From: Heptranchias perlo | Taxonomy: Eukaryota | Reading direction: 5' to 3' | Assembly (NCBI RefSeq): GCF_035084215.1 | Contig: NC_090332.1 | Span: forward strand, 78,058,001 to 78,122,000 | DNA: 64,000 nt | Program-made: the position numbers and the translations under genes | In this document: positions 19,190 through 63,572 of the stretch, piece by piece | How the letters are laid out: each line of letters starts with the position of its first letter | Position numbering within the stretch: the first letter of the stretch is position 1 | Notes under the pieces: model-generated | Database searches by the model: none | The model's input: the letters and a program-made list of their open reading frames with translations, nothing else | Told to the model about the DNA's origin: nothing

Positions 19190-21520
19190 CGGAGTTTGTG
19201 GTAGAGGCTGAAGGCAATGGCTTTGGACTTCCCAATGTTCATCCAGAACAGGATGCCGTACAAGCAGGCTGACCACACACAGGCAGTGGAGAGGTAGAGA
19301 GAGGTGGTGGAGAGGGAGATCAGCATACATGTGGAACCTGACGTCATGTCTTCCGACGATGTTGCCGAGGAATAGGAGGAGGCCAGGGATAGATCCTTGG
19401 GGGACTCCACAGATAATGGTGCAGGGTCGGGAAGAGAAACAATTGCTGGAGATGCTGTGGCTATGATTGGATAGGTAAGCGTGGAACAAAATAAGGGCAG
19501 TCCCATTCAGTTGGACAATGGTGGAGAGGTGTTGGAGGAGGATGGCGTGGTCGACCGAGTCAAAGGCTGCAGAGAGGTAGAAACGGACGATGAGGGATGA
19601 TGCACCATTGTCACAATCACAGAGGATGTCATTTGTGACTTTGATTATGGCTGTTTCTGTGCTGTGGCAGGGGCATAAACTTGAATAGAGAGATTCAAAC
19701 ATGGAATGGTGGGAAAGATGGGCACAGATTTGGGAGGCGATAATACGATCAAAGACTTTGGAGAGGAAAGGGAGTTTTGAAGGAAGGAGGTGATAGTGGT
19801 AGTTTTAAAAGGGAGGGGAACCTGAGGCAAAGGAACCACTTACAATGCCAGCTTGCATGGGGGCTCGGAAAAGAAGTTGGGTGGTCAGCAATTTAGTCAG
19901 AATGGGGTCAAGCGAGTGTGAGGTGGGTCTGGACAGGATGAGTTTGCAGAGGGCATAGGGGAGATAGGAGTGAAGCTAGAGATTGACATGGGTTCTGGGC
20001 TGGAACTGGGGGATCCTTGGGGGAAGTTTAGTTTGGTGGACAAGGAATGCAGCACGAGGCAGCTGAACAGATAGTCTGAATCTTAGTTACAAAGTAGTCT
20101 ATGAGCTAGTCGCACTTGTTGGAGGGTGAGGCTGGAGAGAGGGGTTTAAAGAGACAGACTGTAGTGGAGAAAAGAAACCAGGGTTATCTTTGCATTCCAG
20201 AATGATTTTGATTAGTGAGCAATTTTGGTAGAGGAGAACAAGGCCTGATAATGCTTAATGTGGTCTCGCCAGATCTGGCAATGAATGGCTAAACCAGATG
20301 TCTGCCAGATACTTTCAAATATGTGTCCCTTGGGCTTGAGAGAGCAAAGATGGGGACAACGACCAGGGTGGGAGAGAGTAAGGGTTTTATTGGGGACAAG
20401 GACAGAAGGATGGGAGTGATTGAGCAGATTGACAGCTGTAGAAGTATTGTGGTACATGAAGGGCCAAAGGCTGGAGAGTTGGGAGTTTGAAAATGCAATT
20501 GTAAGTGACTGGGAAAGATTTTTTTTCCAAAGGCACAGATGGAAGTGAGGTTGGAAGGGTAGGGTGGTGGGAATGGCGAGGGATGCAGGGAAGCAATCAG
20601 ATGGGTGTGCCTGTGATTTTTTTTTTCGTTCATGGGATGTGGGCGTCACTGGCAAGGCTGGCATTTATTGCCCATCCCTAATTGCCCTTGAGAAGGTGGT
20701 GGTGAGCCGCCTTCTTGAACCGCTGCAGTCCGTGTGATGACAGTTTTCCCACGATGATAGGAGAAGCCACGTGCAAAGACAAGGTCGTGGGATTTTTTGT
20801 GAAAATGGATGGGAGAGTTTACATGGAGGGAAAGGTTAAGGGAGGAATGTTAAATCAGAGGATTGATATGGAAATTGAAATCACTGAGGATGAGGAGTTG
20901 CTCAGTGCAGAGGCTGAGGGAGTGAGGATATCTCAGTGAGAAACTTGGTTGTGGCGACAAGAGAATGAAGATTTTTAGAGGCAAAAGGGGTGGAACAAGA
21001 TGACATACTTGAAGGAGAAGTGCCAGAGGAGTAAGGACAGGGCAGGGGGTGGAAAGTACAGCCACGCAGGGAGGCTTCAGTAAGGCGGAAGGTGTCCCCA
21101 ACCACAATCCAAGTTTCCATCAAAGCCATGATGTCAATGCAACATCGTAAATGGACATTCTGGAGGGAAATGTAAAAGGGCAATGATTGTTCATCCACTG
21201 GCAGAGGCCAGGGGGGGTAGCAGTGGGTGGGGTGATCAAGACAGGAAGGAGGGTGGCAAGAATAGTTCCCAGAAGACACGCTGGGTAGGAGAGAGAAGAA
21301 TGGGACAATTTGGGTTGCTGCTTGTAAGGCAGTAGCGACAGGTTCCTCTGGGCCTTTCGGAGAATGTCGAGAAACCCAGAGGGTAGCTGTGGGCTTATCC
21401 AAAGGGGATTCGAATCTGAAACAGCGGTGAGGAGGAAGGCAGAGGAATAGTGTTGAGGTAGGGATTTGGGCTGGGGAGTGGGGAAAGGAAGTGTCCGAGA
21501 GCAGAGATATGACAGTTGAC
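19190..21520 (-). mobile_element. Decayed L2-type LINE spanning endonuclease to RT
   Basis: EN remnants (ISLQNV..IDIMALMETW; LILSDFNFHIN) and RT remnants (HSTETAIIKVTNDIL..LSAAFDSVDH..GVPQGSI..FHMYAD); a short LINE tail is inserted at about 20618-20738. Confidence 0.85.
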
Positions 21521-28500: not shown

Positions 28501-31500
28501 GAAAGATCAGTCTATATTTTGTTTAAAATCTAAATGATTATCCTGTCACAGTGGGTGTATAATTATAGATAGGTATTGTTTTCAGCTTGCTTAACAATAA
28601 AAAGAATCAGTCTCCAGAATAGAAATTCTCTTATATTAGTGAAAATCCAGTAAAGCATTTGAAAGTACTGAGGTGACAAGTTAGTTTTCAAATACAGAAT
28701 GTTTATAGACATATGATTCAATGAAATGTAAGTTCCTAATATATCAGTTCAAGTTCAAGTTTCATGTAAGTCTGAACAGGATTTTAAAAAAAGAGGTGAC
28801 ACCACTTCTCACGGATATAAAACAGAATAGATTGAAAGTGTGAAGCATGTCCAGTTTTAAAGGAAACACAATTTCTGATAATTGGGATGAAGTCTGATTA
28901 AAAGCTCATGAAGGTTTTTTAAATTATTGAGGTAATAAAACTGTTAATAGACAGATACAAAGTACATAATGGGAATTCTCCCGCTCCACTTCCACATAGC
29001 AACACAAGGATTATGTAGAGCAATGTAGCGATAACAGATTGCATATTAAGGCTAATCACTTAAGTGCTGAGCAACCATCTGATACCTAAATTCTATTATC
29101 TTTAATCTCTTAAAATTATCTGTTTAATGTGGCAAGCAATGGACTTGTTACCAAATGTGTTGCATGAGATCTGGGAGGTAATTTTAACCCCCAAGAACGG
29201 GTAGATTGGGAGTGGGTGGGCAGTAAAAATAATGGATTTTTGGAGCAGGTCCGCATCCCCGCTCCAATGCGCCCACTTCCAGGTTTGACCGAGGTGCATT
29301 TGGATGCGCATGCGCGCACGCAGAACTGACACCCGGACGTCCTGCCCCCACTTAAAGCCGGCGGGCCAATAAGTAAAGGGGCAATGTACCTCATTGCGAT
29401 AGTTGAGGTACTTAATTTTTTGTGTATTACAAAAGTAAAACAACTTTAACCAAAGCTATTCGGGTTTCCCATCGCTTCCAATTCACATCAAGTGAAAGCA
29501 GGTGGGAAGGGCCGGATCCAAGAAGTGAGTGTCTTTATTGCACTGTTTGTGGGCCCGGAGGAGCAGGAGTACTTCTTCCAGGCCCAACAAGCTCACCTGG
29601 CACGACATGACCCCACAATCGGCCAAAACCACCCCCTGATGCTGGACCCCCCTGATCTTCTCCACCCGTTGTCATCCAGGCCCCCCACTCCTTCGATTTC
29701 TTCCACAGTCCACAATTTCTCTCCCCCTCCCTGATTCGCAGCTCCTCTCACTTCTGACAGGAAGCCAGTCTGTCAATCTGGCTGCCTGCCGCGTAGGAAA
29801 TCCACAAGCACAAATACTTACCTTCAACTGAGTTGCGATCGCAGATTTGGCTTCCGGGTTGCCCATGTGAATTTATAGGGACGGGTTGGGTTCCCGGCTC
29901 CCAGCTAAAATCATGTCTCATGTTTGTGGAAATTACTAATGACATTGCAGAGCTGACCAGATATCTTACCTCTGGCATATCTAGTCTAGGTTGGCCAATT
30001 GCCAGTTCATAGATTGCACGGGCACGTTCAACATCACCGAGGATGGTCTCCAACTCAGCAAACTTGATCCAAGTAGTGCAGTTCTCTGGAGAAAACTCCA
30101 GGTATTTCTCATACAGTTTCCTACACCGGTCAAACTCGCGAAGCTGGAGCTCTAGTTCAATGTACCCCTTGAACAGCTTGTTCTTTGGACATTTCCCTAT
30201 GCCAGTACCCTGAAAGTGCACACAAGAAAAATTCTAATGTAAGTTATTATTCATTAATATACAGCTTATCCTGATCCAGAATAAGAAATGTATTCCAGTT
30301 GACAGGTCACTTGCAACAGTAAAAGCAGGCCTCTCAGTCCAGCATAGTATGGCATGGAGGGGGAAGGATAGTCAATTTCAGAACGGCCTTCAGAAATGAG
30401 AAGAATACACATCCTCATTTGAATGGAAATAAAAAGAAAAAACTCTGCAAACTTTGGAAATCTGAAACAAGAAGTGTTGTGAATAGACATCTAGAAAGAG
30501 AAAAGAACAGATTTTTGATGAAGGGTTATACACAAAATGTTTCCCTGTCTTTTTTCTTTTCAGATGCTAACTGACCTGTTGTGCATTTCCATCATTTTCT
30601 GTTTTTGTGTCTGTTTAAATAGAGATGTCTTCTGACTGAACTAATGGTTGACCTAAGCTGAACCCGATGCCAGCACTTTTCCAATCATATGTTGGCAACA
30701 CTGGAATTAAAATAATGATGTTTTATAAAAAAGGTAGATTTTTTATTTACACATGGGAGGTGTGAAGTACTTTTATTTAAATGTACTCTTTCCCCATTCA
30801 ATAATCTCTTCTTTTTAATTTCTAGTTACTGACACAGAGAGGGAAAAAAAAGTGATTTTTGGTAGTGGCAGAATTTAGTATTTTGCTTCCCCAATGACTC
30901 AGTTTTGTCCATTAAGGGCAGTAAGCTCACAGGTTTAGATCCCATCTGTGCTAATCTCAGTCAAGGTGGCAGTAATGCCCCTACAATTAGCCTCAGTGTC
31001 CCTGAGTTAGGGAAGGGAAAATTAGCCTGTGTTCCTGCCTCTGTTTGCTATCCAGTGACCCCAGCTGTAAGTAGGCGTGTGCGTATAGATATGAGGTGAG
31101 GAGAGGGTAGGATGCAGCTTTGACATCCCCTCTCGTGAATAGTCTACTGACATTCATTGTGAACCTCATATTGGAGGGCGCCCAGTGCCTGTGGAACCTC
31201 GACAAGGAATCCATACCTTTGGGACAGCGAGGTTCAAAATCGGTAAAAACAAACAGTATTTCTGCAAAGAAAGTCTATCAATTGCCTTGGCACCTGGTTT
31301 CTGTCGTCAACTTAACAGATGCGTGACAGCTAAGACCTGTACTGTGATAAATAGAGTTTCAGAAGAAAGAGCATAATGCAGCATCAAAAAAGACATGAAA
31401 GTTCTGAGAGTCTAATCTAACTATTGTATCCTTAAGCTAAGAAAGATATCATCCATAAGTAAAAGTGAAGGAAGGTGTATGATTACTTACCAAAGCCCTC

Positions 31501-37500: not shown

Positions 37501-40500
37501 TAGACACAGCACGGCCCGAAGTCACCTGGTATCAGTGTAACAGATTTCTGGAGTTTGATAGCAACTTTCTTGGCGATTTTTAAAAAAAACTGCGATCTAC
37601 GCTATACTTAACCACTTAACCAAAATGCTGTCAGTCTCAGTGCACCTGAAATACTTTGGACCCCCACCTCCCTCATGAGTTCAGAAGGACTATGCAGCTG
37701 CAATGGCCTTCCCAATGGGCATACCCCTGTTCTGCATAATAATGGAAGAGGAAGGAGAGACAAGAGGCACGGACAATGAGGCACCACGTCAGAAGGTACT
37801 AACAAACTGAAATCACTTGCACAGCCACACAATGGCCGGGTAATTCCTTGGAGATGCTCCCACTCTTCTGGTGTTACGTTGCCAGAAGTGAAGCGAAAAC
37901 CCCGTTTGCACTAATAAGTGGGGTTCCCGTTGCACTTCTTGGGAAGTACGTCGGAAGAGTGGGAGCAGCTCTGTGGAATTTCCAGCCAGTATCACTCAAA
38001 AGTGAAACTACAGCTGGTAACAATGTTAACGACAGAAGGTAATTCTGAATAATTCAGACTTTAACAAGTTAACAATGGCTTTTTGACACTATTGTTGGGT
38101 GCTGCCCAAATTGACACCATGGTGAAGGTGTGGAAATTAACTTTTGTTACTGGACATAGCAATGGAGCTGTTGCCTTTACAGTTGCATATACAAATGAAA
38201 AGTTAAACCAGAAATAAGTTCCTCTCCAGTAGGCCTGGTGATAAAATGTCAGGAATATCTGGACAGCTGTGAGTTCAAACCCAGTTTTAACCAAGAATCA
38301 CACTTCCTTCCCCTCATTTTTGATGACTTCTAAATGATGCAGCACTTCCGCTGTGATTCATCAGAATGCTTGGTTTCATAATCCACACATGCAAGTCTCC
38401 TTTTTTACAAAAAATGTTCACTAAACAGTAATACAGACGCATGCAGTAAGTTTTTAAAAAATTCTGAGCGGATAACACCATTTTAAAAATAGCATCTACA
38501 GTCAAAACACAAATGGGCAACAATTACTGGCGCTGAATTTGAGCTTTTTTTACACCAGTTCTTAACATTCCGGCATAGGCCAATGTGCGCTACTGCAAAT
38601 TTCAGTGCAAGTTTCTGTCTGCAAGATCAGCATGGAAACTGGAGTAAATTTTGGTGCAATTTCTGCGTAAATTGGGATGCAGGAAATTCGGGGCCTTTGA
38701 GACACCTGCATATAAAGTTGTGCTCAGTTCTCTTTTCCCTGTTGATTCCGCTGCTTTTGTTTCTTGTTCTTTATTTTGTCCATTTTTTCTTTTCTTAGGA
38801 AAATGCTAAGAAGAAAACGAAGTGCAATTTGGGTTGTAACTCATTTCAATTGGATACTGTTAGGTTTGTCTAGATTTAACTGTACCATTTCTGGGCTAGA
38901 GCAGTACCAATGACATTAATGAGTAAGACTCTTAAAAGGCATAGATTGAGATGTCCTCGCAAGCAAAGTTTCTGATTGGCTGACATGGAGTGCACATTCT
39001 ATTCCCAAGGGTGCACACCCCATTGCCAAATTCTAGACAACTTAGGTTGGCCAATACAGGTTGCCCCGAAATTCTTTGGACTTTGCTGTCTCATTAGATC
39101 ACTGAGTCTGTGAAGTGAGGTTGGCTCTGTTCCCATTTTCCATCAGTGGTCATATTGTCATGGAGCCCTTGACCCCAAAGATACATGCTCATCTCTACTT
39201 CCTCCCCTGCCCCCCAACCAAGACGATAGTCATTTGTTGGTGCGGGCTTTAGCCCTTATTAACCAGACAGAAAATAACCAATAACTTCTCAAATAAAATA
39301 GGGAGAAGCAGAACTCACCATAAAGCATGTGAATGCACTGTTCCCATCCTTCTGACCACAGCATGGACACACATCATACCCTATCAAACAGCAGTTACAC
39401 CAAGTGGAGGTGTAGATCTTCAGCAGCAACCCAATCATTGTAAGAACCAAATCTTAGATATATAAGCTTTCCCGTTAGTTTGTGTGGTGATGAGCAGCTT
39501 ATATCCCTTATTTCTTCATACAAATCACAATTTAAAAGGATATACTTCTCATAAACCAGCCTGGCTCTTTCAATCTCCTTGTATCGGAGTTCAAAGTTGA
39601 TATAGGAGTGCCAGGCTTGCTCATCAGGTTGCCATTCCATCCAGCGCTCAAACACCTGTCGTCCTCCTGCAACATTCCCTAGCATCTCCTCCATGTAGGT
39701 GTATTTATACCTAGCAAAAGTAAATATAATATAGTATGTGCATATCAACACAAGCATACCTTTAGATCCATTCTGGGGACATTACGTTCGTATAGCAATG
39801 GATTTTAAAATTATTTCCATTATGGTTCAGCACCACAGAGTGGCGAGTCCTGAGTTTGCAACCCACAGTTCCAAACTGAGCCGTGTCATTATGCGAATCA
39901 GGTTCTTCCCTGCCTTGAGAGAGTCTCGTCATCAGTCCGGTATCATACACTTCCTAAACCTGGGTTCAGAGTGATATCAGGGCAGACCAGTGAACAGTTC
40001 ATCTGCCTTTTTGGGTGTAGCTGATGTAGGGCATAGGTGGGAAAATGGAAGGGGTTCTTACCTTCAGATTAGGGAAAACATTAGAAAGCACAGTCTCATT
40101 CTGATGAAATGACTTGGCTGAAATGAACTGATATTTTTAGACTTCCAAAAAAGAAATTCTCTCGCTAAGAAAACTGTGGCAAGAACAGGTTGGAATTAAT
40201 TAGTCCGAATATGATAGAGCAGAACAGGCTTGCAAATGTAATCAGAAACACCTATTATCTTAACAGTTCTCTTACACAGTGATTTAAAATTAATAGGACC
40301 AATAGAATATGGATCTGAAATTTATATTTGAAATATGCTTTTTATTCAAATACAAATATTTTAAATATGCAAAGAAATGAAGTAGGAAACTGTTAACATA
40401 TAAATAATTCTCTGTTCTGTTGTTTATTAGTGACATTCATTTAAGTTGGATTTTTGAGGATGTGTTAAAATAAATAATTACGAAGAAATTGATTAGAAGA

Positions 40501-44690: not shown

Positions 44691-46638
44691 TAAAACAAAC
44701 CGTTCTGTATATATATAAAGAGAGAGGAAAATGTGAATCCAGGGGTGGCTACCGTTAAATTTGTATTTTTCCGAATACTCCTGCTCCCACACAGGGTGGA
44801 GCGTTAGGCCGTTATGGGAAGGGACAGTCGATGCGCAGGATCTATATGTTGTCAGACCCATTGAAATATAATGAATTCTAGGGTTGTTTTCCACCAGGAA
44901 ATTTTTATAGAATTAGTATTTGCAATATTCAGCTTATTCCACATATCAATCCTGATCCTCCTGCTCCACCACAACCTCCAATTTTGTTTCCTACTTTGTG
45001 ATGGGATAAAGTTCAACTTTGAAAGAAAATCTGTTGTTTCAAACAAAATTTGTTGGGAAGTTTTCAGAAAAGCAGAAAATCCACAGCAAGTCAGTCGGTG
45101 TCTCTAAAGAGAAAAGGCAAGGTTATGGGGCTAGGAGTTCCCTCCGCATTTGCGCCCAGAGATATGTGTAAATTGAGCGCAAACCAATTATGCGGCTTAA
45201 AAGAGCACGAATTTTGGGCGTAGGTGAGTTAAGCCAGTAACTACAATACGCCCAAGTCGCCTCGATCTTTTAGGTATGTCCATCCTTCATTCGAACGAAT
45301 CTCCGCCCACAAAACTGGCCACGCCTCCAACTCTCATGCGAGTATCCTCTGCTTTTTCGGAGGGTCTCTTGTGACCAGATTTTCAAGCGCAACAGGAAAG
45401 AAAGTCATTATTCTAATGTTTAATTGCAATTTTTTGAGCCTTTTTAAAAATTTATTCTGACTGAATTTTAAATTTATTTTTATGGCATAAGTATAAACCA
45501 CATTAAAAATTGAAAAGCTTCTCCGCTTGCAAGTTCCTAAACATGCTGTGCCTGATGGACATGAATGATGGTTGAATGAGTTGAAATTTAAATTTTCCTA
45601 CTTAAAGAAGAAATACATGGGGACTGATTTTCGGATGGCTGAGCGGGTGCGTTGGGGGCGGGGGGTCAGCTAAAATGCCGGAATCCTGCAGCAGGTTCGG
45701 AGCCCGGCTCCAACCCGCTCACTTCCGGGTTCCCCAATGACGCGTTCGGGTGCGTGCGCAGCTCCCGCATGCGGGGCTCCCACCGGCAATTAAAGCCGGC
45801 GGGATGATAATTTAGATAATTATTTAGGTAGTTGAGATACTTGACAGACCTCATTGAGTGGCGATTTTGGCAGGGGTGCAATTTTGAAGGATCCTCAGCG
45901 TGTTTCCCGTGCTGTGGGAAACACTCCCTGTTGGAGCAGATGTGTTTCAGCCAGCAGCCAGTGGGAGATGCAAAGGATTATTTGACAGGTGGGGGAATAC
46001 CTCATTTATTGCAGCAGGGCACTCTGTCACTTCAGACAAAATTTTGGCTGCAACACTTATGTCTTTCCACTCAAAATGATTAATTTATACCCTAAACTCT
46101 GCTGTGCAAACACATTTACCTACTTTGCAGACCCCCTCAAACTCTCAACGTCAGGATGGGGGGGCACCATGGCTGCATTCATCACTTCATCTGAGGACGA
46201 GCAACATCGCCAGGCATGCTGTCCACCTCCGCCACGTGGAGCTCCACAACACAGTGCTGCGCGACAGGCACCAGCACAACAGCAGGGAGGGCAACAACAG
46301 AGAGAGCGGCGTCACAGGAGGCAGTACCCTCGCCACAGGGTCTACAGACTGAGGCTCAGCTTCCTGGATTTCTCTGAGGAGCAGTGCATATGGAGGCTCA
46401 GAGTCAGTCGCCAGGTAGTCGTGGACATTTGCAGCCTCCGTCATGCTGAGCTGCTCCCGGCTGGCCCAAGCAGCATCTTCTTACCTGTCGCTGTTAAAAT
46501 CACCACTGCCCTCAAATTCTTCGCCTCGTGATCGTTCCAGGGTGCCAACGGGAACATCGCTGGGGTCTCTCAGTCGTCTGCATACAAGTGCATTAAGGCA
46601 GGTCACTGATGGCTTGTTTGCAGGGCCTCGCACTATAT

Positions 46639-47279
46639 TGTTGCTCCGATTTTGCTAGATGTTCGAAAGATCGAACAAATAGGTTAGCAACCTTTCCTTT
46701 TAGGGTTCAAATGTAAGTTTGCGCTGAACAAACACACCGGCAACAGATTTCGTGTACAAAGATTTATCTTTAATAAATGCTTAACAAACACCGTTCGTAG
46801 TTTAAAGTACAGTTCCAAAATATAAGACTCACAGCTTATATTGATTACCCGATTTGGTCCAAGGTGATCAATCTCTGTCCAAACCTCTACGTAGGGTTTC
46901 TGTCCCCAGGTCTCTGCTGTCGAGTGTTGCTCCTAGGTTCTCGCTGCTATCTGGGGTTTTTCCTCCTGGTTTATACTATCCTATAATCTGTCCCATCTCC
47001 TTGATTACACATTTGTTCCCTTTTCCTGCACCCTGTTGATTAGTTTATCCTATTCTACAACCTGTCCCATCTCCTTGATTAGTTTACATCTTACTTCATC
47101 CATTGACCCATTGTTTGTTAACTGGCGTCTGTCGTGACCTCACCCATGTCTGACAAGGTTACCTATGAGTCCTCTGTTTCAGAACATTACTGAACCTCTG
47201 CATTATTTATCCACTATCCCTTACACATGGTGACTCCTTCATTTTATTTCAGTTTTACACTACTAATTCCATTTCCACA
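46639..47279 (-). mobile_element. Solo LTR (641 bp) inserted in the transposase
   Basis: TGT...ACA termini; 4-bp flanks ATAT/TTAT whose removal restores CAC TAT ATC AAC; TATAAA (about 46970) and ATTAAA (about 46770) on - strand; internal direct repeat TGTCCCATCTCCTTGATTA. Confidence 0.75.
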
Positions 47280-47377
47280 TTATCAACTTCCCCATGGATG
47301 ACCTCAGCCAGACAGAGAGGGCAGTGGGATTCCACGCTGTGGCTGGCTTCTCACGGGTGCAGGGTGTAATCGATTGC

Positions 47378-48008
47378 ATATAAATACTGTGGCGACAAGA
47401 GCAGGTCAGTGGCTGGGTATTCTGCAGCGAACGACTCATCTCCTGACTCCCCAAAGCCTTTCCACCATCTACAAGGCACAAGTCAGGAGTGTGATGGAAT
47501 ACTCTCCACTTGCCTGGATGAGTGCAGCTCCAACAACACTCAAGAAGCTCGACACCATCCAGGACAAAGCAGCCCGCTTGATTGGCACCCCATCCACCAC
47601 CCTAAACGTTCACTCCCTTCACCACCGGCGCACTGTGGCTGCAGTGTGCACCATCCACAGGATGCACTGCAGCAACTCGCCAAGGCTTCTTCGACAGCAC
47701 CTCCCAAACCCGCGACCTCTGCCGCCTAGAAGGACAAGGGCAGCAGGCACATGGGAACAACACCGCCTGCACGTTCCCCTCCAAGCCACACACCATCCTG
47801 ACTTGGAAATATATCGCCGTTCCTTCATCGTCGCTGGGTCAAAATCCTGGAATTCCCTTCCTAACAGCACTGTGGGAGAACCTTCACCACGCGGACTGCA
47901 GCGGTCCAAGAAGACGGCTCACCACCACCTTCTCAAGGGCAATTAGGGATGGGCAATAAATTCTGGCCTCACCAGCGACGCCCACATCCCATGAATGAAT
48001 AAAAAGAA
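47378..48008 (+). mobile_element. LINE 3' fragment inserted in the transposase
   Basis: Near-identical to 13760-14341; interrupts the transposase right after the catalytic IDC motif; ends CCCATGAATGAATAAAAA. Confidence 0.9.
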
Positions 48009-48939
48009 ATATAGCATATGAGCACCTCCACACGAGCCAGGACTGTTCATCAACAGGAAGGGCTATCATTCCATCAACATTCAGCTCATCTGTGACCACT
48101 GCAAGAGATTCCTTCACGTGTGCGCCAGATACCCTGGCAGCTGCCATGATTCCTTCATCCTCTGGGAATCCATCCCGCCCCTCTTCCACGCACCGAACAC
48201 CAGCAAAGGCTGGCTCCTCGGGGACAAGGAATACCCCCTGCACACGTGGCTCATGACACCTCTGAGGAACCCCACCACCGAGCAATATCGTCGCTATAAC
48301 GACAGCCACATCGCTACCAGGTGTACAATTGAGCATGCTATAGGGCTGCTCAAGATGCGCTTCAGGTGCCTTGATAGTTCTGGGAGAGCGCTTCAATACG
48401 CACTAGACAGAGTGGGACTCATTATAGTCGTCTGTTGTGCCCTGCACAACATGGCACAACAGAGAGGGGTGCCGCTGGAGGAGGCCCCATCCACATCTGC
48501 CACCCATATTGAGGAGGAGGAGGAGGACGAGGACAAGGAGGAGGAGCAACCCATGGGCAGAACAGCGGCTCACCTGGCTGCTCGTGAGCCCAGGGAGTCA
48601 CTGATATGTGAACGGTTCTCCTAACTTCAGACAGAGTGAAGAGTCCAGTCCTCACCACCTGGACAGAGCAGAGGCCACACCAGCTCCCTTCCCCCGCCCC
48701 TGCACAAAATAGTCGTGGAACTACACATACACCCACTATAGAGTGACCCAATGGGTGGCATCAAGTGGGGTGTTCATGGCGAACCTCATGAAAGGAACTT
48801 ACTACACAAGCCAGTCAAGAATGGCCAAGACGAGGCAGTAGTGGTGACAATAATAATATTTAATGTGCCAGTAACAAAAATCAAATATAAATAAAAAACA
48901 CGACAATCTGTCAAACACTCTTGTGCATCCCCTTTGTGC

Positions 48940-50804
48940 TCACAAAACCTTTGCCTCACGCTTCCGACTACTCCTACCTGGTGCTTCCCCTGTGGCTGCA
49001 ACAGAGGTAGTAGCAGGTTGTTCTTGTTCATGTCCTGACCGATTAGATGCTTTGGGCCGACGCCCTCTGTGTTTCGGTGCCTGTGAGGGCCCCTCCAAAG
49101 ACTGCTGCACTTGCACCTGTGCAGGGACAGACTCGACCACCTGGGGAGGAGGCAGCATTGCAGATATTGGTTGAGAGGGGGGCAACGGGTGAGACGTGGA
49201 AGCGCTTTGAGTGGCGTCCTCACTTCCCTGTCCCTTTTCATCATCCCTCTCCTGGACCAGGCCCACATCACTCCTACCACCCTGCTGGACGACAGTCTGG
49301 AGGACATGTGTGAAACCTTGTAAGGCCAGTGCTAGTGTATCTGCCGGCCTGTTTAAGGCAGCAGAAAGTTGCTCACCCTGATTCTGAAGGGCTGTTGTCA
49401 GGACCTCAGTGGACTCATTGCTGAGCCGTGCTTGAAGCTCGATGGAGGCTAGCCTTCCCTCCATCGCAGACATTCCCGCACTTACCCGCGACGCTATCTC
49501 AGAGATGCCCTCACGTTCCTGTGACACTATCTCAGAGATCCCCTCCTGCATCTGTGCCACCATTCCAGTCATGCAGGAGTTGGACTCCATCCTCTGCGCG
49601 ATTGTGGAGAGTGCGCGTGGCATCTGTTCCAGCATCTCGCAAATGTGCTGCTGCCCTTCGATCATTCTCCCTTTAAAGGATTGCCCCAGGGTTCAGCATC
49701 TGTGTCCAGCTGAGCAGAGCCTGGAGAAGAATGCTCTCACCGACGCGGACTCTCCACAGCTGCCCCTGCCACCAGTGTCTGCTCGTGTTCACGTGTGTGG
49801 TAACTCACCATGTGCAACCCCAGCTAACTGAGGACGGGGACCCACCGAGGTGTGTGTATCTGCGCTGGTAGATGGCTCGCTCAGATGTGACAGTGCCCCC
49901 TCAGAGGCCGGCAGGTCCTCTGAGGAATCGCCCTCCGTCGTCACAGCAGTCGCTGAAGGCCGTGTAAGAGAACAGAAGGCAATATTAAGCATGATGAGAG
50001 ATGTTGAGGTGCTGAAGATGGCAAGGCATGTTAACATCATTTGCTATTGTGAGTGCTGAATGTTAAGGTTCCATCACCAGCCGTTTGTCGGGTGGTAGTC
50101 TCGGCGTCCCAGACGGACAGGCACTCGAGGGTGCGGCTCAGTTCAAGAGCCTCCTGCTCCGCGTCCGTGAGGACGACCTGATGTTGCCGCCCCCCTCCGG
50201 TCTTCGCCCTCTCCCGTGCATTCTGGGCTCTCTTCTCCTATAAGGGGGGAAAGTAGAGAGGCGTGAGTGAGGGATGGTGACATGGCCAACAGCTGAATGC
50301 AATGGTTTGGGTGAGGCTGACCGTGAAAGAGATGCATCAGAGGGTGAGTATGAGACAGAGCCATGATATTGTATGAGGATTGGGTTGAGTGGTAATGGTG
50401 GGATGAGTACTGGGGAGGTGAGTAAGGGCAGATAAGTTGAGGATGAGGTTTGAGTGGGTGTGAGGAGTGATGTAAATGAGTAGTGTTGGCAGTGCAGAAG
50501 GAGTTGTGGGGTGGGGGCGGTGATGTGGAAGACGGAGTGTAGGAGAATGAGTAAGTGTACTCACTTTGGCTGACCTAGTTAGGTCATTGAAGTGCTTCCT
50601 GCACTGTATCCAGGTGCGGGAGACATTGCTGGTGCTGGTGACCTTCTCTGCTACCTCGAGCCACGCCTTCTTGGTGGCAGAGGCAGGCCATTTACTCCCG
50701 TCCGCCGGGTAGAAGATCTCCCTCTTCCTCCTCACCCCATCCAGTAGGACCTGGAGTGAGGCATCATTAAACCTGGGAGCAGCCTTTCCCCTGGTCTGCT
50801 CCAT
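48940..50804 (-). pseudogene. Harbinger Myb/SANT-like DNA-binding protein gene (3 exons, decayed)
   Basis: Exon 50804-50565 (APRFNDASLQVLLDGV..KKAWLEVAEKV..RTWIQCRKHFNDL, donor GTGAGT), exon 50237-50078 (EKRAQNARERAKTGGG), last exon about 49961-48940 with acceptor mutated to AC and internal disruptions. Confidence 0.85.
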
Positions 50805-52299
50805 GCTGCACTTTTGGTTGGTTGCTGCAGGAGCAGCATTGGAGGACTGCCCCTTTAAACAGGGCTCCTCCAGCTGACAGCCCGTGATGCAGGTGCGCAG
50901 TCTGCCCGCTGCACAGGTTGATGACGTGAAACCCGGGAGCCATGGTAAATGCCTTCAATTTACCCGTGATTGCGCAGGGAACAGACGGATTTTACTGGGC
51001 GGGTTACCCAGTCGCCCCCCCCCCCCCCCCCCCCCCCGGTTGCCATCCTGCCTGCCGGGTAATATTGGGGCCATGGTGTGGGTTCGCCGCTTTATTTGGG
51101 CTCCTATTGTTTTCGTTGATGGGCATATTAAATTGGGAGGATACTTGGACATAATTTGACATCAGCAAAATGGGCGCAACATTGGGTGCATTTTCTGGTC
51201 TAACTTCCGGGTTGCGCCCTAGAAGGAAACCCCAGGCCTCAATGTTTTGGGTGTTTACCATTCATCAGAATTTGTTACTGAGGCAATTTTCAGACTGGGT
51301 TGTTTCTGGAGCTAAGAGTACCCAAAAATTCTTATTGAGCCAACAGCAGTGCTATTACGATATCCTTTTTGATGCACATGGTAATCCTCTGCCCATGGAA
51401 AAAGCTTTATGGCCGTTCCCTCACCAGCAACCACTCTAACTCCAAACTTTTTCTCCTCTGACCTGCCACAACATCATGGTCACTATTGACCTGCACAACA
51501 ACTTCCTTTTACTTTCAGTGACCTTGTCCCTACAAAGTTCTTCATGGTTTCTTACTCCCAATTCTGCTCTTGCAAGTCAGAAAGCTGCAAACTTGAGTTC
51601 ACCAGGTGTACCGCTGACCTGGTTATCCACTGCTAAACCTACCTTGACCACCCAAAGAATTTATTGTATCTGCCTCTCTGTGCCAACCATTCTTACTACC
51701 TTTTATACTGTTTATCCTGGAGTAGTACGAACTTTTGGCAAGGAGTGATAGATATACAGTAAGTTCTTAAGGTAGTCCAGTCAGATCTGGGCAGTCCCAA
51801 ACTCCTCTGCTCGATGACAAACTGCCTATTCTGCCCCCTCAATTTCCACACCAAGTGTGATGAATTCATGAATTTTTTTGTTTCAAAGATTGAATCTATC
51901 TGTTCAACTGTCTTAGCCTCATCTTTCTCCTCTTCCACTGCCACCCAGCCTCCCCCTCAGTTATCCTTGTACCTCAGGCTCAATCTCATGTAACTATGTA
52001 ACTCCACTGTCTCTTCAACCTACCCCTCCCCATCAGGCTCCTCATGATCCACATGAGATCCCCCAATGGCGCTATTACTCTTCTCCCGATCCAACTTCTG
52101 ATCACACAATTACCTCTCTTTTTCCCGATAGTCATTGACATCATCAATGCCTCCCTTTCCTTAAGCATTGTTAACTGTCCTCCAAAACTGCCATTGTCAC
52201 CCTCTTCCTCAAAAAACATGCCCTCAACTCCCTCTGTCCTCTCCAACTATAGCCCCAGTCTCTAACCTCCCTTTCCTCTCTAAGGTCCTTGAGTGTCAG

Positions 52300-54218: not shown

Positions 54219-55864
54219 GGGGGAGAAATTGGTTAAAGGTCCGTTCTGGGCGATGTTAGCACGATGCGCTAACACCCCGCGCCCGACAGACCCTGGGCAG
54301 GCAGGACGCAAGTTTGGTCCCAAGGGAGCACTTACCAGCAATCCGTGTTCCTTTCCAGGCCTTGCATGTGGAACCAATGCAATTCACACTTTCCACCACC
54401 AGGGGGAGCTCGATCTCTTAAAGGGAAGATGTTTCTGAGAAATCTCTTAAAGGTAGCTTGTACCTGTTATTTGCTGAAAAAGTGTCTGAACAGAGATCAG
54501 ACATCGCACACATAAAACACAGATGCAGATCCCATCCCTACGTTTAGGCACTGATGAGTTATGTTAAAACATTGAATAAAGGTTGCGCATTACTAAATCC
54601 CACATCCTCCAATCTGCACACCAGACCTCAGCAATCTGCCAATCTGAGAGCGCATGCACCAAGGTTCTCTGCTGATGCACGTGAGACCTTGGGTGAAGAG
54701 GTTTACAGAAGGAGGGACATCCTATATCCGCAGTGGGGTGGGGGTTGGGGGGGCAAGATGCCCTCCAGACATATACTCAAAAGACAGTGGGGGCATCGGG
54801 GGACGAAGTCAATGCCAGGCGCACAGCATCATAAACATTGATGCAGTGCAGGAAGAAGTTCAATGTTTTGACATGAGTGGGCAAGGTGAGTGAGGTCAAC
54901 TGTCAAGTGGCATCTCCTACCAACTGCACCACGCACTACACCCCCCCATCACCCACATACCAATAAACTCTTTCCATCAGTACTCAACTCTTCCCATCAG
55001 ATGCTTCCTCCCGCCCTTGCACATTACCACTGTTTCAAGCCACCCACCCACAACTCACAGGCCACACACACTAGCAGCTATTCAGCCATGACAGGCACAT
55101 CACCCAGGCACACACCTCGCTTTCTTGCAGGAGAAGGTGGCGCATATCAAGAGGCAGCAAGTGGCAGTGGCATTTAGCCCCTCAAGCCTGTTCCACCATT
55201 CAGTGAGATCATGGTGGACCTGTGACATAACTCCATATACCCGCCTTAGCCCCATATGCCTTAATACCCTTAGTTCACAGAAATCTATCAATCTCAGATT
55301 TAACATTCACAAGTGAGCTAGCATCAACTGCCGTCTGTAGAAGAGCATTCCAAACGTCTCCCACCCTTTGCGTGTAGAAGCATTTCCTAACTTCACTTCT
55401 GCCCGTCCTGGCTCTAAGTGTTAGGCTATGTCCTCGGGTCTTAATATTGAAGTCTAGGAGAGCTCCAAAAACAGTTACAAATGTCTCGTCAGCCAGAGGC
55501 AATAATCCATCCACTAACCTGTAAATCCTGCATGGTCCCTTCAAATAGCGCCGGTGGGGGGTCTTCCAGGCACTCTAAGACACGTTCAGATGGTCGGGGT
55601 TAAGACTGCATTGAGTTGAGCGTTAAGTTCCAAAATGGTGTCTATCACTTTAAATCAGCGTTGCACACTGATTGAAGCCATTTTCTTCCTACTTTACATG
55701 ATTCCAGCGTTTCTTATCTGCGCCTGCGCTAACTCCTATACCAAGATGGCATCTGGCGCACCTCACACAGGAAACGTGCATGCGCATCCAAGATGCCATC
55801 TTGGATGTCGGAGAGGCCGTGTAGCGCCGAAACAACAGTCGCTACACGGCCCAATTTAGTGCCC
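54219..55864 (+). mobile_element. Second, internally deleted Harbinger element with Myb/SANT remnant
   Basis: Termini GGGGGAGAAATTGG / CCAATTTAGTGCCC; APRFSADARETLGEEVYRRRDILYP..QCRKKFN remnant with donor GTGAGT (about 54886) and acceptor CTTGCAG|GAGAAG (about 55130); CR1 tail inserted at about 55170-55440. Confidence 0.75.
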
Positions 55865-56249
55865 GCTATCTCTAAATAACTCTCATTTTGTTCTCTCTCT
55901 TCCCACCTTCAAAAAACCTCCTCAAAACCTACCTCTTTGTTAGTGTCGTCGGCCACCTCTCCTAACTTCTGTCACTCTTCTTGATCAGATTCCAACAGTA
56001 TGCTGTGAAACAGTTTAATTACGAGCGGGAGTAGAAAAATGCAAGTTGTTCTTGTTGAGAAAAGGTTGAAAGACAAAAGGATCTAGTTCTTTGAAATGCT
56101 AAGAGGCATGAATAATGTAGATGTAAGATGGTTGTGTAATTTATACAGTAATCACAGAACTAGCAAGATTAGAAATTAGATTTTTTTCTTTCCTCAAAGT
56201 AATATATAGAAAAGACTTCCAGCCAAAGCAGTTAGTACTATATTGTTGA

Positions 56250-56456
56250 TGTGGAGATGCCGGTGATGGACTGGGGTTGACAATTGTAAACAATTTTACA
56301 ACACCAAGTTATAGTCCAACGATTTTTATTTGAAATCTACAAGCTTTCGGAGGCTTCCTCCCTCACATTTACCTGAGGAAGGAGGAAGCCTCCGAAAGCT
56401 TGTAGATTTCAAATAAAAATCGTTGGACTATAACTTGGTGTTGTAAAATTGTTTAC
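56250..56456. mobile_element. Fold-back Penelope-like mini-element with perfect 76-bp inverted repeat
   Basis: Arms 56286-56361 and 56381-56456 are exact reverse complements; 14-bp TSD TACTATATTGTTGA at 56236-56249 and 56454-56467. Confidence 0.85.
56367..56407 (+). ncRNA. Minimal type I hammerhead ribozyme motif
   Basis: Stem I AUUUAC/GUAGAU, core CUGAGGA plus extra A, stem II GGAGG-AAG-CCUCC, GAAA, GCUU with essentially no helix III; predicted cleavage after 56401. Confidence 0.7.
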
Positions 56457-56743
56457 TATATTGTTGAAATCGGAAGAGACCATTGCGATCTGCTGAGCCT
56501 GTCCCAAAATTTAAAAAACTATCTCTCAGACGCTTCCCCTGTTCTCTTTCTCTGCAACTATCTATTCAGTTCTTCTTGAATTTATTCCAAATAGATGACC
56601 AAATACTTTATGGAACACAGTGATTGTATACATTTGGGACATTGGGAATGTTGGCTATGGGATGTACTAATCTTAGCTGAATAGTGTGTGTTGTGAAGTT
56701 GGATCGCTATCCTGAAGCTTTACTCCCTCACTCTTGGGTGTCA

Positions 56744-56846
56744 ATTGTAAACAATTTTACAACACCAAGTTATAGTCCAGCAATTTTATTTTAAATTCAC
56801 AAGCTTTCGGAGGCTACCTCCTTCCTCAGGTGAACGATGTGGAACA
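56744..56846 (-). mobile_element. 103-bp Penelope-like mini-element (single arm)
   Basis: Same family as 56250-56456; 10-bp TSD TTGGGTGTCA at 56734-56743 and 56847-56856. Confidence 0.8.
56795..56835 (-). ncRNA. Minimal type I hammerhead ribozyme motif
   Basis: On - strand: GUUCAC CUGAGGA A GGAGG-UAG-CCUCC GAAA GCUU GUGAAU. Confidence 0.7.
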
Positions 56847-57144
56847 TTGGGTGTCAGGAAGCCATTTCAGAGCTTTCTTTTTTTGAAGTTTTCCCTATTG
56901 CTGTTTTCTGCCCTCAAGAGATTAAGTAGGTTGGGCAGGGTCCATGATGGGGAAAATTGTATACTGTCTATGGAGGGAACAAGCTGACGGGCCAGATTTT
57001 TTTTTCCTCATTACATACTTTCTTGTGCTTTTTTGGAAGGATATCCTTTTCTCTTTCTTCTACCTACTTTTGTTTTTAATGATTTAATGAGCTTTGTTTT
57101 TTAGGGTGTTGTTTCCTGTGTTTTGTTCCAAAACCCCTTAGATT

Positions 57145-60100
57145 TAATGTTACATTGAGTCTACAGCACAGAAACAGGCCATTCGGCCCAACTGTTCTAT
57201 GTTGGCATTTATGCTGCGCACGTGCCTCCTCCCTCCGTACTTCATCTGCTCCTATCAGCATATCCTTCTATTCCTTTCTCCTTCGTGTGCTTATCTAGCT
57301 TCCCCTTATCTATGCTAGTTGCCTCAACTACTCCTTGTGGTAGCGCATTCCACATTCTTACCACTCTGGGTTAACATGTTTCTCTTGAATTCCCTGTTGG
57401 ATTTAATAGTGACTATCTTATATTGATAACCTCCAGTTTTGGACACTTCCACATAGGGTAAACATAGAGAAATGTTTCCATATCAAACCCTTTGATTGAC
57501 TTAAAGACCTCTTTCAGGTCACCCTTCAGCCTTCTCTTTTCGAGAAAAAAGAGCCCAAGCCTGTTTGGTCTTTATTGATAAGTATATCCTCTCAGTTCTG
57601 GTATCATCCTTGTGAATCTTTTTTGCACCTTCTCCAATGCCTCTATATCCTTTTTATGATATGGAGTCCAGAACTGTGCGCAATACCCAAGGTTCTATCC
57701 AAGTTTAATATAACTTATCTGCTTTTCAATTCTATCCCTCTAGAAATGAACCCCAGTGCCAGGTTTGCCTTTTTTATGGCTTAATTAACCTGCGTTGCTA
57801 CTTTTAGTGATTTGTGTGTCCGTACCCTGAGATTCCTTTGCTCCTCTACCCCATTTAGACTCTTATTATCCAAGCAGTATATGGACTCCTTATTCTTCCT
57901 ACCAAAATGCACCACCTCACACTTATCTATATTGAAGTTCATTTGCCAATTACACACCCATTCTGCCAGTTTATTAATGCCTTCTTGCATTTTAATGCAT
58001 TCTTCCTTTGTATTAACTACATCCCCAATTTGGTGTCATCTGCAAATTTTGAACTTGTACTTCTGATTCCCGAATCCAAATTGTTGATGTAAATTGTGAA
58101 CAACAATGGTCCCAGCACCGATCCCTGTGGAATAACACTCTGAGTAGCTACCCTTAACCCCTACTCTCTTTTCTGTTTTGTAGCCAGCTTGCTATCCACT
58201 CTGCTACCTGTCCCCTGACTCCACATGCTCTGACCTTAGTCATGAGTACAATATGGTACCTTATCAAAGGCCTTCTGAAAATCCAAATATATTACATCTA
58301 CTGCATTACCCTTGTCTACTCTTTCTCTTGCTTCAAATAATTCAATGAGGTTGGTCAAGCATGACTTTCCCTTCTGAAATCCGTGCTGACTACTCTTTAT
58401 TATATTTTCATTTTCTAGATGTTTTTCTATTACATCTTTGAGTAAAGATTCCATTATCTTTCCTACCACTGACGTTAAGCTAACTGGTCTATAGTTCCCT
58501 GGACTTGTTCTATCTCCCTTTTTAAATATAGGAATAACATTAGCTGTCCACCAGTACCCTGCATCTTTCTCTTTTCTAATGAATTTTTATATATATGTAA
58601 TAATGCCTATGCTATCTGTTCCCTAATAATATATGCAGATGCAATCCATCAGGACCAGGGGTTTTATCGTCTTTAAGTTTAATTAGTTTATCAATTATCG
58701 CTCCCCTTTCTATTTTAAATATCTTCATACCTTTTTTGATCTCTTCTTCTAATGTCATACCCACCTTATTGTCTCCCTGCTAAATACTGAGGCAAAGTAA
58801 CTATTCATTATTTCTGCCATTTCGCTGTCATTACCTGTGAGTTTATCTCGTGCATCCCTTAGTGGCCCTATCCTTATCCTGATTTTTCTTTTGTTATTTA
58901 TGTGTCTGTAGAATACTTTACTATTTCTTTTTATATTCCTTAATAATTTAATTTCGTAGTTCCTCTTTCCTAATTGTTTTTTTTGCCATCCTTCCCCTTT
59001 GTATTCCTTTTTGTCATGCTCTTCTTTATTGTCTGTGTACTTAAAGTATGCCTTTTTTGTTTCAATTTTACCCTTATCTCTTTATTGATCCATGGTGTTT
59101 CATTATTGGCTAATTTATTATTTTTTTAGAGGAATATATTTCTCCTGAACTCTATTGATCACTGTTTTAAATATTTTCCGCTGCTGTTCTATCTCTTTGT
59201 CTGTCAACATTTTTCTCCAGTTTACCTTCTCTGGTTCCATTCTCATCCCTTCAAAATTAGCTTTTTTTCCAATCTATTACTTTGGTCCTTGTCTTACTTA
59301 TGTCTTTCTCAACCATTATTTTAAATCTTCTTATGTTATGATCGCTATTGCCTAGATGTTCCCCTACGCTTACTTCTCTTATCTGCTCCGGTTCATTTCC
59401 CATTACTAGATCCAGCAGTGATTCCTCTTTTGGGCTTCTCAAATATTGGTAAGAAAGGAGTCAAGTACACACAGTAAAAACATCATTCCCCTTTCCCCTT
59501 TCCCTACCTCTTGCCAGTTTATTTGGGGGTAGTTGAAATATGCCATAATTATTATTTGATGTTTTTTACTGATTTCATAGATTTGCCTACATATTTCTTC
59601 CTCCACTTCCTTTCTACTATTAGGTGGTTTGTAGAATATGCCTATTAACTGATCAATCCCTTTTTTTTCTTTGTCTCAATCTGTATGGATTCTGTTTCTA
59701 CCTTAATATTACTTATGTCCCTTTTTTCTATTGCCATTATGCTGCTCTAATTAGTACAGTTACTCCACCCTCCCTTCTTCCTTCTCTATTCTTTCTAAAT
59801 AAGTTATATCCTCCAATATTTAACTGCCAGTCCTGTTCTTTATGTAGCCATGTTTCAGTTATCCCTGCTACATCTGGCTCCTCATTACAAATTTGTATCA
59901 GATGCTGTGCACATTGCTGTACAGGCAATTCAATTTGTTTTTAATAATTGTCATTTTGTACTTATGTTCTGTAACTGTATTTGTTCCCTGACCATTTATG
60001 TTACCCTTGTTCCTTACCTTGGTCTGACCTTTACGCTCATCTCCTATTTCTTTTATCTTCAGACTTACGTTTTTTTCATCAGATTCCTCCCCTGTCTTAC

Positions 60101-61593: not shown

Positions 61594-62769
61594 ACAACAA
61601 CAACTTGTATTTATATAGCGCCTTTAACCTAGTAAAATGTCCCAAGGCGCTTCATAGGAGCGATTTTTGGGCCAGATACGGAGATATTAGGACCAGTGAC
61701 CTTGAATTTACCTTGACCAGGTAAATTTGAAGGAGCGTCTTAAAGGAGGAGAGAGAAGCAGAGAGGTTTAGAGAAGTAATTCCAGAGCTTAGGGCCTAGG
61801 CAGCTGAAGGCACGGCCACCAATGGTGGAGTGAAGAAAATCGGGGATGACCAAAAGGCTAGAATTGGAGAAGCGCAGAGATGTCAGAGGCGGTTACAGAG
61901 ATAAGGTGGAGTGAGGCCATGGATGGATTTGAAAACAAGGATGAGAATTTTAAAATCGAAGCCTTGCCGGACCATAAGCCAGTGTAGGTCAGTGAGCAAA
62001 GGACTGATGGGCGAACAGGACAGTACAAGTTAGGATACGGGCGGCAGTGTTTTGGATGAGCTCAAGTTTACAGAGGGTGCAAGTTGGGAGGCTGGCCAGG
62101 AGCGCATTGGAATAGTTGAGTCTAGAGGTAACAAAGGCATGGATGAGGGCATCAGCAGCAGATGAGCTGAGGCAGTGGCGGAGATGGGCGATGTTTTGGA
62201 GGTGGAAGTAGGTGGTCTTGATGCTGGAAAGGATATGGGGTTGGAAGTTCAGCTCCGGGTCAAATAGGACGCCGAGGTTGCAAACAGCCTGGTTCAGCCT
62301 CAGATAGTGGCTGGGGAGAAGGATGGAGTCGGTGGCTAGGGAATGGAATTTGTGGCCGGGACTGAAGACAATGGCTTCGGTCTTCCCAATATTTAATTGG
62401 AGGAAGTTTCTGCTCATTCATTGCTGGATATCGGGCAAGCAGCGTGACAAATCAGAGGCAGTGGAGGGATTGAGAGAGATGGTGGTGAGGTAGAGCTGGG
62501 TGTCGTCAGCGTACATGTGGAACCTGATGTTGTGTTTTCAGATGATGTCACCATGGGGCAGCTTGTAGATGAGAAATAGGAGGGGGCCAAGGATAGACTC
62601 TTGGGGGACTCCAGAGGTAATGGAGTGGGAAGAGAAGCCATTGCAGGTGATTCTCTGGCTATGACTGGATAGATAGGAATGTAACCAGGCGAAGGCAGTC
62701 CCACCTGCTGGACAATGGAGGAGAGACATTGGAGGAGGATGGTGTGGTCAACCGTGTCAAAGGCTGCAG
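61594..62769 (-). mobile_element. L2-type LINE 3' part
   Basis: [17 protein letters not shown]; NFLQLNIGKTEAIVF; LIHAFVTSRLNYSNALL; tail ACAACAACAACTTGTATTTATATAGC on +. Confidence 0.9.
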
Positions 62770-63572
62770 ATCCCAGACTCCGCCATCACCATCCCTGGTT
62801 ATGTCTTATCCCATTGACAGGATCCCATGGGGGCATTATGATACACAGTCAGGTGGGAGTGGTCTGGGACATGAAGTCTAATGGCTTCAGGTAAAACAAG
62901 ATCCTGCTGCTCACCACTTACCACACCCCCTTCAACTGATAAATCAGAACTCCCCCATGTAAAAAAGCTTACCAGAATCCAATTTGTTTAAACCTTTCAT
63001 AATGTTAAACACTTCTATCATATTCCCATGGCCTTCTCTGTTCAAGAAAGAAAAGACCTAGGGTAGTCAATCTTTCCTCATACTTCTTTCTCTTAAGTTC
63101 TAGGACCAACTGTGTCGCCTGACTCTGTACTCACTCCAGTAACTGAATATCCTTTTTGAAATGGAGAGACCAAAACTGCATGCAGGGAAGCGTCCTGTGC
63201 CCAGCCATCTTCAGCTACTTCATCAATGACCTTCCCTCTGTCATGTCAGGAGTGATGCTATTGGCTGACTTTTCCACAGTCTTTAGCTCCATTCACAGCT
63301 CTTCTAATGATGAAACAACCCATGTTAGCCTACAGCAGGATGTGGATAACATCCAGACTTGAGCTGACAAGTGGTAGATAGCATTTGTGCCAATAAGTGC
63401 CAGGTAATGATCATCTCAAATAAGAGAAACTCAGCCATCTCTCCTTTACCTTCAATGACACCACTATTGCCGTGTGTCCCACCATCAACATGCTGGGGGT
63501 CACAATTGACCAGAATCTGAACTAGACCAGTCTCATCATCACTGTAGCTACTAGAGCAGGGCAGAAGCTGCA
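62770..63572 (+). mobile_element. Mosaic of decayed LINE fragments
   Basis: QGSVLCPAIFSYFINDLPS remnant and CAAGTGCCAGG..CCACCATCAACAT segment homologous to 13617-13800; short CR1-like piece on - strand at about 63000-63180. Confidence 0.7.

Follow-up and report, generated by a model that had tools for sequence, protein, structure and literature searches.

Two short hammerhead-bearing insertions, most likely terminal pieces of a Penelope-like element

Two short insertions that lie close together in a 64-kb window (the window being the whole stretch of DNA analysed, 64,000 nucleotides) are probably dead fragments. Both represent the terminal module of a single high-copy family, a module that most likely corresponds to the pseudo-LTR end of an endonuclease-bearing (EN+) Penelope-like element (PLE). 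The link to Penelope is the most likely one, and it is drawn from a shared architecture and not from identity to a named family. The features on which this reading is based are listed below.

56236..56249, plus strand: left direct repeat of insertion 1; its last 3 nt also match the end of the element tail; single in the organism C contig
56250..56283, minus strand: tail of insertion 1; a 33-39-nt A/C-rich 3' extension, present at this end only
56283..56364, minus strand: left arm of insertion 1; terminal module, broken within the hammerhead
56365..56453, plus strand: right arm of insertion 1; tail-less terminal module, with the whole hammerhead and an AATAAA 3' of it
56367..56407, plus strand: intact hammerhead of insertion 1 (minimal type I), with its core at 56373-56401 and a predicted cut site after 56401
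56454..56467, plus strand: right direct repeat of insertion 1; its first 3 nt also match the element
56734..56743, plus strand: left-hand repeat of insertion 2 (10-bp target-site duplication); 2 nt match the continuation of the element and the remainder resembles the start of the tail
56744..56846, minus strand: insertion 2; 5'-truncated terminal module without tail
56795..56835, minus strand: intact hammerhead of insertion 2 (minimal type I), with a core that starts at 56829 and a predicted cut site after 56801
56847..56856, plus strand: right-hand repeat of insertion 2 (10-bp target-site duplication)

Two separate insertions, one with an empty site in a relative

The first insert spans 56250-56453 (204 bp) and the second 56744-56846 (103 bp), with a gap of 290 bp between them. 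The direct repeats around insertion 1 (56236-56249 and 56454-56467) match exactly at 14/14 positions, and those around insertion 2 (56734-56743 and 56847-56856) at 10/10. When random window segments were examined with loose boundaries, a flanking repeat of at least 14 was found in 0 of 3000 segments of 204 nt (the largest being 11), and one of at least 10 in 5 of 3000 segments of 103 nt. At either end of insertion 1, 3 nt are compatible with both the element and the target, so that the duplication of insertion 1, previously given as 14 bp, stands as an exact 14-bp repeat within which the true duplication measures 8-14 bp. At the 3' end of insertion 2 this applies to 2 nt, and positions 56845-56846 of the same insertion are two letters that match neither the family nor the left flank.

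Contigs from four public runs were aligned to positions 55900-57200. In organism A, three contigs span all four junctions with 0 differences, at a depth of ~13; this run may be the source sample itself, and the contigs therefore exclude an assembly slip only. An empty site for insertion 1 was found in organism C, in which one 934-nt contig joins window position 56237 to 56456 (adjacent contig positions 408/409; aligned blocks 56030-56237 and 56456-56743) and skips 218 bp, i.e., the 204-bp insert plus one 14-bp repeat. Because exactly the insert and one repeat are missing from this contig, insertion 1 is a true insertion. The flanks in organism C differ from the window at 51 of 496 letters and at 21 further gap positions. 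Insertion 1 therefore postdates a fairly old split, and the 98% identity of its two arms, described below, together with the perfect repeats make it young within the time since that split. The organism C alignment ends at 56743, the last base before insertion 2, and supports the left boundary of this insertion only. Among the joint rows listed for organism A, which has 131 further rows, there was no empty allele. The preliminary description had proposed two independent and recent retro-insertions. That they are two separate insertions, each with its own target-site duplication, is borne out by the exact 14- and 10-bp repeats and, for insertion 1, by the empty site, and recent activity holds in so far as insertion 1 is younger than the organism C split.

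Insertion 1 is an inverted pair

The two related insertions that had been described are both present; however, insertion 1 is in fact a head-to-head inverted pair, in which 56283-56364 matches 56378-56459 over 82 nt at 98% identity, with both 3' ends pointing outward, and it thus contains a third arm with a broken hammerhead. This left arm keeps stem II, GAAA and GCUU, and is without the 5' strand of stem I and most of C3-A9. Insertion 2 ends at the same extension-less position as the right arm of insertion 1. The three arms have different 5' ends, none of which (0/3) coincides with the cut site, and no arm is circularly permuted. Neither insertion shows a tandem unit or terminal redundancy, and beyond the three arms no further family copies were found in the 64-kb window (blastn; the next nhmmer match had an E value of 2.3). 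The possibility that the 10-bp repeat of insertion 2 represents the terminal redundancy of a circular unit was rejected, since the left copy is present in the orthologue and the family sequence takes a different course at 56844.

Both 3' ends recur elsewhere in the family. At least 28 contigs of run X1 enter the element at 56246-56249 on the tail side (three joint rows among those listed), and the tail-less end recurs at 56283-56285 in record 3 of X1, with 1196 nt of foreign flank, and in record 17 of X5, with 207 nt. Upstream of the 5' end of copy 2 the family extends past 56844 in three organism B contigs, a continuation seen for about 45 nt (the median) and in organism B only, which indicates that insertion 2 is 5'-truncated. 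The reverse complement of this upstream stretch precedes a forward arm in two more contigs. Within the joint rows listed (12 of 86), the forward arm starts at 56365-56375, just upstream of the core, in 11 of 12, and 56840-56844 is joined to 56365-56375 in 8 of 12, although this clustering of starts is biased because the reference itself ends there. We read these joins as other head-to-head copies in which both arms start just upstream of the core, their strand having been inferred. The junctions of other inverted family copies, among the joint rows listed, differ from the one in insertion 1.

That the family is a high-copy one is supported by a summed depth of 0.3-3.3 million over the arms, whereas the unique bins that separate and follow the arms reach 13-46. 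This depth is not a copy number, being inflated by overlapping short contigs, and we infer a family of thousands of copies or more. Related sequence is also present in organisms B and C. One run, which we guess to be RNA, contains family sequence and lacks the flanks of the locus, its contig depth being unsuitable for ranking the parts. Conservation across organisms is far higher in the tail than in the body of the element, with depths of 151,000 and 2,500, respectively, in run X11 (organism C). Pattern scans gave 0 family copies in metagenome contigs (two patterns), viral contigs and prokaryote genomes. A literature search found no published description of the family by sequence, with Repbase, Dfam and the supplements of a 2026 preprint outside its scope, and there was no sequence match in the supplements searched.

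Complete minimal hammerheads on opposite strands

As the preliminary description had stated, both inserts carry a complete CUGAGGA-A-stem II-GAAA-GCUU motif. Both motifs contain all core bases C3-A9, an extra A, GAAA (G12-A15.1) and then G, C, U16.1 and U17, with a 5-bp helix II that has G10.1-C11.1, a 3-nt loop, a palindromic 15.1-16.1 and no helix III, which makes them minimal type I hammerheads. The core of copy 2 is identical to that of copy 1, helices I and II are predicted to form in both, and the earlier cut-site numbering is correct, position 17 being 56401. The two complete motifs lie on opposite strands, with their cores starting at 56373 (plus) and 56829 (minus). The hammerhead pattern occurs twice in 64 kb versus 0.29 times expected, and at least two occurrences were found in 2 of 100 shuffles, with a spacing that was chosen post hoc. 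Loose CUGANGA...GAAA matches at 12006 and 16577 were rejected, as their spacers are long and weak.

The scan with Rfam hammerhead models that had been suggested gave 0 matches at the gathering score, and no hammerhead was present among the 21 matches at E values up to 10. The Rfam hammerhead models expect a helix III, so the absent match does not disqualify a motif of the minimal class. The microRNA matches that Rfam gave were rejected as generic hairpin scores under the gathering thresholds.

In isolation the two motifs were predicted to fold as drawn, with pair probabilities of 0.61-1.0 and folding z-scores of -1.6 and -2.0. Within the whole of insertion 1 the hammerhead stems had a pair probability of 0.00, and the predicted fold is an ~80-bp hairpin on either strand in which the hammerhead is sequestered. 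The stem pairs of copy 2 reached 0.78-0.98 in context. In minus-strand predictions copy 2 folds (0.82-0.99), but the left-arm AGCU, the sole AGCU nearby, is wholly taken up by pairing within the hairpin, and its probability of pairing with copy 2 is 0.0. For the isolated 41-mers, and with an energy model that ignores the catalytic core, a dimer fold lies within 1 kcal/mol of two monomers, and a stem II-swapped fold lies 9-12 kcal/mol lower. No RNA cleavage is predicted at this locus, where the two complete motifs occupy different strands and either strand of insertion 1 would form the ~80-bp hairpin. The variants of the 3' strand of stem I (56403-56405 on the plus strand and 56797-56799 on the minus strand) give two different stop codons in one common frame, probably by chance, which would add a constraint if an open reading frame ended there.

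Stem I differences are attributed to source subfamilies

It had been noted that stem I differs between the copies and still pairs, and that loop II is the only other difference inside the motif. Both observations hold: stem I forms 6/6 pairs in each copy, with one pair changed on both sides and two pairs changed on one side. Over the whole alignment, 9 of 90 columns differ between copies 1 and 2, of which 4 fall in stem I, 1 in loop II and 4 in the next 17 nt. The core and stem II (26 nt) contain 0 differences, an outcome with a probability of 0.065 at 10% divergence. The last 33 nt, at the 3' end and outside the ribozyme, also contain 0 differences and are as invariant as the core. The observed covariation was reached in 248 of 500 shuffles, and in a simulation four random changes preserved all six stem I pairs in 1.4-21% of trials, depending on the transition bias. 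The proposal that compensatory changes reveal a selected fold is therefore not upheld, with one two-sided change, a covariation so often reached in shuffles and a non-ribozyme 3' stretch that is equally invariant.

A change at 56796 is found in 100 contigs (37% of the X1 depth) and would open the fifth pair of stem I unless it is matched, the pile-up being unphased. In organism C the A at 56404 is absent from most of the depth (again unphased), so that the stem I difference may involve an indel. Since the stem I differences are common to many contigs, they would be traits of subfamilies of the source elements and not changes that were selected at this locus. In active source lineages the fold is likely to be under selection, a view that comes from published work and goes beyond these two copies. 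The organism C family copies in run X11 have insertions in stem II/loop II at 56384-56389, i.e., a longer helix II.

Likeness to insertions of EN+ Penelope-like elements

The locus combines an inverted copy, a one-sided tail of 30-40 bp, a duplication of 8-14 bp and a minimal hammerhead, and because these four marks together are the published signature of EN+ PLEs, we regard the insertions as most likely of Penelope origin. EN+ PLEs have been described with pseudo-LTR hammerheads, an adjacent inverted and 5'-truncated copy and a 30-40-bp tail that is often confined to one end (PMC8557442), as well as with 8-10-bp duplications and head-to-head palindromes (PMC3846280), and Penelope elements have been reported in the whale shark genome (PMC8455134). 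The insertion units of these elements (PMC8557442, PMC3846280, PMC8969392) resemble the present ones in their 5' truncation, head-to-head inverted copy and one-end tail of 30-40 bp, and also in their duplications (8-10 bp), microhomology junctions and solo pseudo-LTRs. Unlike those units, both arms here are too short to retain ORF sequence.

The hammerheads point in the same direction, and the earlier recognition of a minimal type I hammerhead of the Penelope kind is supported by the complete core, by the traits of PLE minimal hammerheads (min-HHRs) and by the EN+ PLE insertion architecture. Metazoan PLE min-HHRs are described as mostly single and dispersed, without cleavage as monomers and with low cleavage as dimers in vitro (Cervera and De la Pena 2014, PMC4209133), and dual motifs 100-700 bp apart on opposite strands have been reported (PMC4209133). 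The motifs here share with them the type I core without helix III, the extra base after A9, G10.1-C11.1 and the palindromic 15.2-16.2 (PMC4209133); of the four PLE min-HHR traits that can be tested on single copies, three (the extra base, G10.1-C11.1 and the palindrome) are present. They differ from the Schistosoma families, in which helix II is 7-8 bp and helix I 4-5 bp (PMC4209133), in having helices of 5 bp and 6 bp, respectively. The searchable supplement of PMC4209133, file 1 excluded, contained no shark example.

A further parallel is Poseidon_Ac from Anolis. Its purified protein was reported to cut and extend both target strands, with uncleaved RNA as the main substrate and a ribozyme that needs protein, and its tail is delimited by two internal start sites for reverse transcriptase (RT), which lie 111-118 nt into an ORF starting at stem II (PMC11167929). 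The present family is alike in its two start sites and tail, in its A/C-rich start region and in its spacing, the distance from the start of stem II to the end of the tail being 112-115 nt here versus 111-118 nt there (PMC11167929). The Poseidon_Ac ORF starts at stem II, whereas the module here contains no ATG after the core, so that the reading frame layout differs. The likeness to Poseidon_Ac is one of architecture only, and its sequence was absent from the supplements searched.

A search for a partner element with a Penelope RT and a GIY-YIG endonuclease had also been proposed. A Pfam scan of 253 of the 896 open frames in the window (38 aa or more) found no GIY-YIG domain. The RT at 58020-58586 was rejected as an autonomous partner, as an apurinic-type endonuclease lies upstream of it (59442-59940), which makes it a LINE.

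Non-coding sources and host use as alternatives

Possible, and in our view rather unlikely, is a source that has neither coding capacity nor autonomy: a dedicated SINE-like or non-LTR-retrozyme master of 120-350 nt, descended from a Penelope pseudo-LTR and dependent on Penelope proteins for its mobilisation in trans. Both inserts are short and non-coding, the family depth is very high, and the start of the forward arm just upstream of the core in 11 of the 12 joint rows listed, biased as it is, would fit a short template. Non-LTR retrozymes derived from pseudo-LTRs, with a mean unit of 363 bp and dispersed monomers, have moreover been reported in vertebrates, including one chondrichthyan (10.64898/2026.07.22.740005). 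What weighs against such a source is that neither insertion has a tandem unit or terminal redundancy, that the three arms have three 5' ends, none of them at the cut site, and that the family continues upstream of copy 2, while inversion and tail are ordinary in Penelope insertion and circular RNA is not needed to account for them.

Non-LTR retrozymes of animals consist of tandem units with a hammerhead in each and are expressed as circles (PMC7229834). The present insertions resemble them (PMC7229834; 10.64898/2026.07.22.740005) in being short and non-coding, with a type I hammerhead, a Penelope derivation, duplications of >4 bp and an occurrence in a chondrichthyan. They differ in that the retrozymes form head-to-tail tandems that are released as circles by canonical hammerheads, whereas there is no tandem here and the hammerheads are minimal; furthermore, the units here are 103 and about 90-115 nt and have variable 5' ends. 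A circular-RNA retrozyme is unsupported, since no arm starts at the cut site, tandem units are absent and an ~80-bp hairpin is predicted to enclose the insertion 1 hammerhead. The distinct retrozyme-like mini-element of the preliminary description is not borne out either, given these same observations, the upstream continuation of the family and the Penelope tail and inversion. A more specific version, which we hold to be slightly less probable again, is an ORF-less Penelope-derived parasite of 120-250 nt, with an RNA that would start a short way upstream of an uncleaved hammerhead and a copy number in the tens of thousands; insertion 1 would then be a fossil of two-ended priming, with one of the start sites known in vitro used on each strand.

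The inserts sit 12 kb upstream of the start codon (44368, minus strand) of a gene that we take, from Pfam HAT matches and its N-terminus, to be CRNKL1-like (crooked neck). Its first coding exon is at 44368 and its HAT-repeat exons are at 39398-39781 and 29751-30233. No exon of another gene was recognised around the inserts, the plus strand included. This setting bears on the idea that the host has retained both hammerheads at this locus, where they would cleave a host transcript, for example one divergent from the CRNKL1-like promoter 12 kb away. Both motifs are intact and copy 2 is predicted to fold in context; however, insertion 1 is absent at the orthologous organism C site, and no single strand carries both complete motifs. 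Copy 1 is predicted to be hidden in the hairpin, and in the minus-strand prediction the left-arm AGCU is wholly paired and leaves copy 2 without a partner. In addition, single min-HHRs showed no cleavage in vitro (PMC4209133), and intactness is expected of young copies whose arms are 98% identical, so that we regard host retention as highly improbable. Equally improbable is an origin of insertion 1 as a fold-back DNA element or through an assembly or repair artefact, its resemblance to insertion 2 being incidental, for while insertion 1 has a long inverted repeat and its Rfam matches are to a generic hairpin only, the contig alignments largely refute this, with independent contigs spanning the junctions without differences, an exact empty site in organism C, unequal arms whose module is shared with the non-inverted copy 2, and other junctions in other inverted copies.

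Other repeats in the window

Several other mobile elements were recognised. A PIF/Harbinger-like transposon, which is CpG-rich, occupies 45986-50954, with a DDE_Tnp_4 transposase frame at 48022-48621 (E 3e-30) and a Myb/SANT frame at 50340-50954, and is interrupted by a LINE piece at 47302-47943. A decayed LINE with RT and apurinic-type endonuclease fragments lies at 58020-59940 on the minus strand, and further LINE RT pieces are found at 5433-6524, 19115-19804, 23576-24569 and 61992-62785. From 57132-57200 onward there is another very high-copy repeat, common to all four runs; its boundary at 57149-57162 is sharp, and its flanks are A/T-rich. Two adjoining perfect G/C-rich inverted repeats at 55741-55851 (arms of 14 and 12 nt) probably come from a small DNA-transposon derivative.

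Proposed mechanism and significance

If the insertions are end-pieces of an EN+ PLE, they may have arisen as follows. The GIY-YIG endonuclease of the source element would nick A/T-rich target DNA, and its RT would start at one of two internal RNA sites, 33-39 nt apart (giving a tailed or a tail-less end), aided by 2-3 nt of microhomology. The template would likely be uncleaved RNA, used in target-primed reverse transcription. In the case of insertion 1, priming may have taken place on both target strands, with a different start site used on each, and the resulting pair of short cDNAs would have been joined in head-to-head orientation close to the hammerhead, whereas insertion 2 would derive from a single cDNA that began at the tail-less site and stopped about 15 nt beyond the hammerhead core. 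The hammerhead itself would be cargo from the source element, where it may be active as a dimer, with the palindromic AGCU forming helix III in trans, or with the help of protein. Within this scheme, direct observation covers the insertions with their duplications, the hammerhead motifs, the depth of the family, its two 3' ends, the tail at one end and the inversion in insertion 1, as well as the site in organism C that lacks this insertion.

Minimal hammerheads in Penelope-like elements have been known as a class since 2014, and this locus is one more instance. Its value lies in being a clean example, in which a 204-bp insertion combines an orthologous empty site, a tail, an inversion and microhomology at both ends, with a spacing of 112-115 nt that agrees with the element studied in vitro. 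How inverted and tailed Penelope insertions are made, and what purpose the hammerhead serves, are described as open questions (PMC8557442, PMC11167929). If the source were an ORF-less parasite, young micro-insertions with empty sites in relatives could be used to map nick geometry, start-site choice and the stalling of the enzyme on the ribozyme, and the role of the Penelope hammerhead would become a question that can be asked in vivo. A genome-wide set of such copies would make the questions of the insertion mechanism and of the role of the hammerhead testable.
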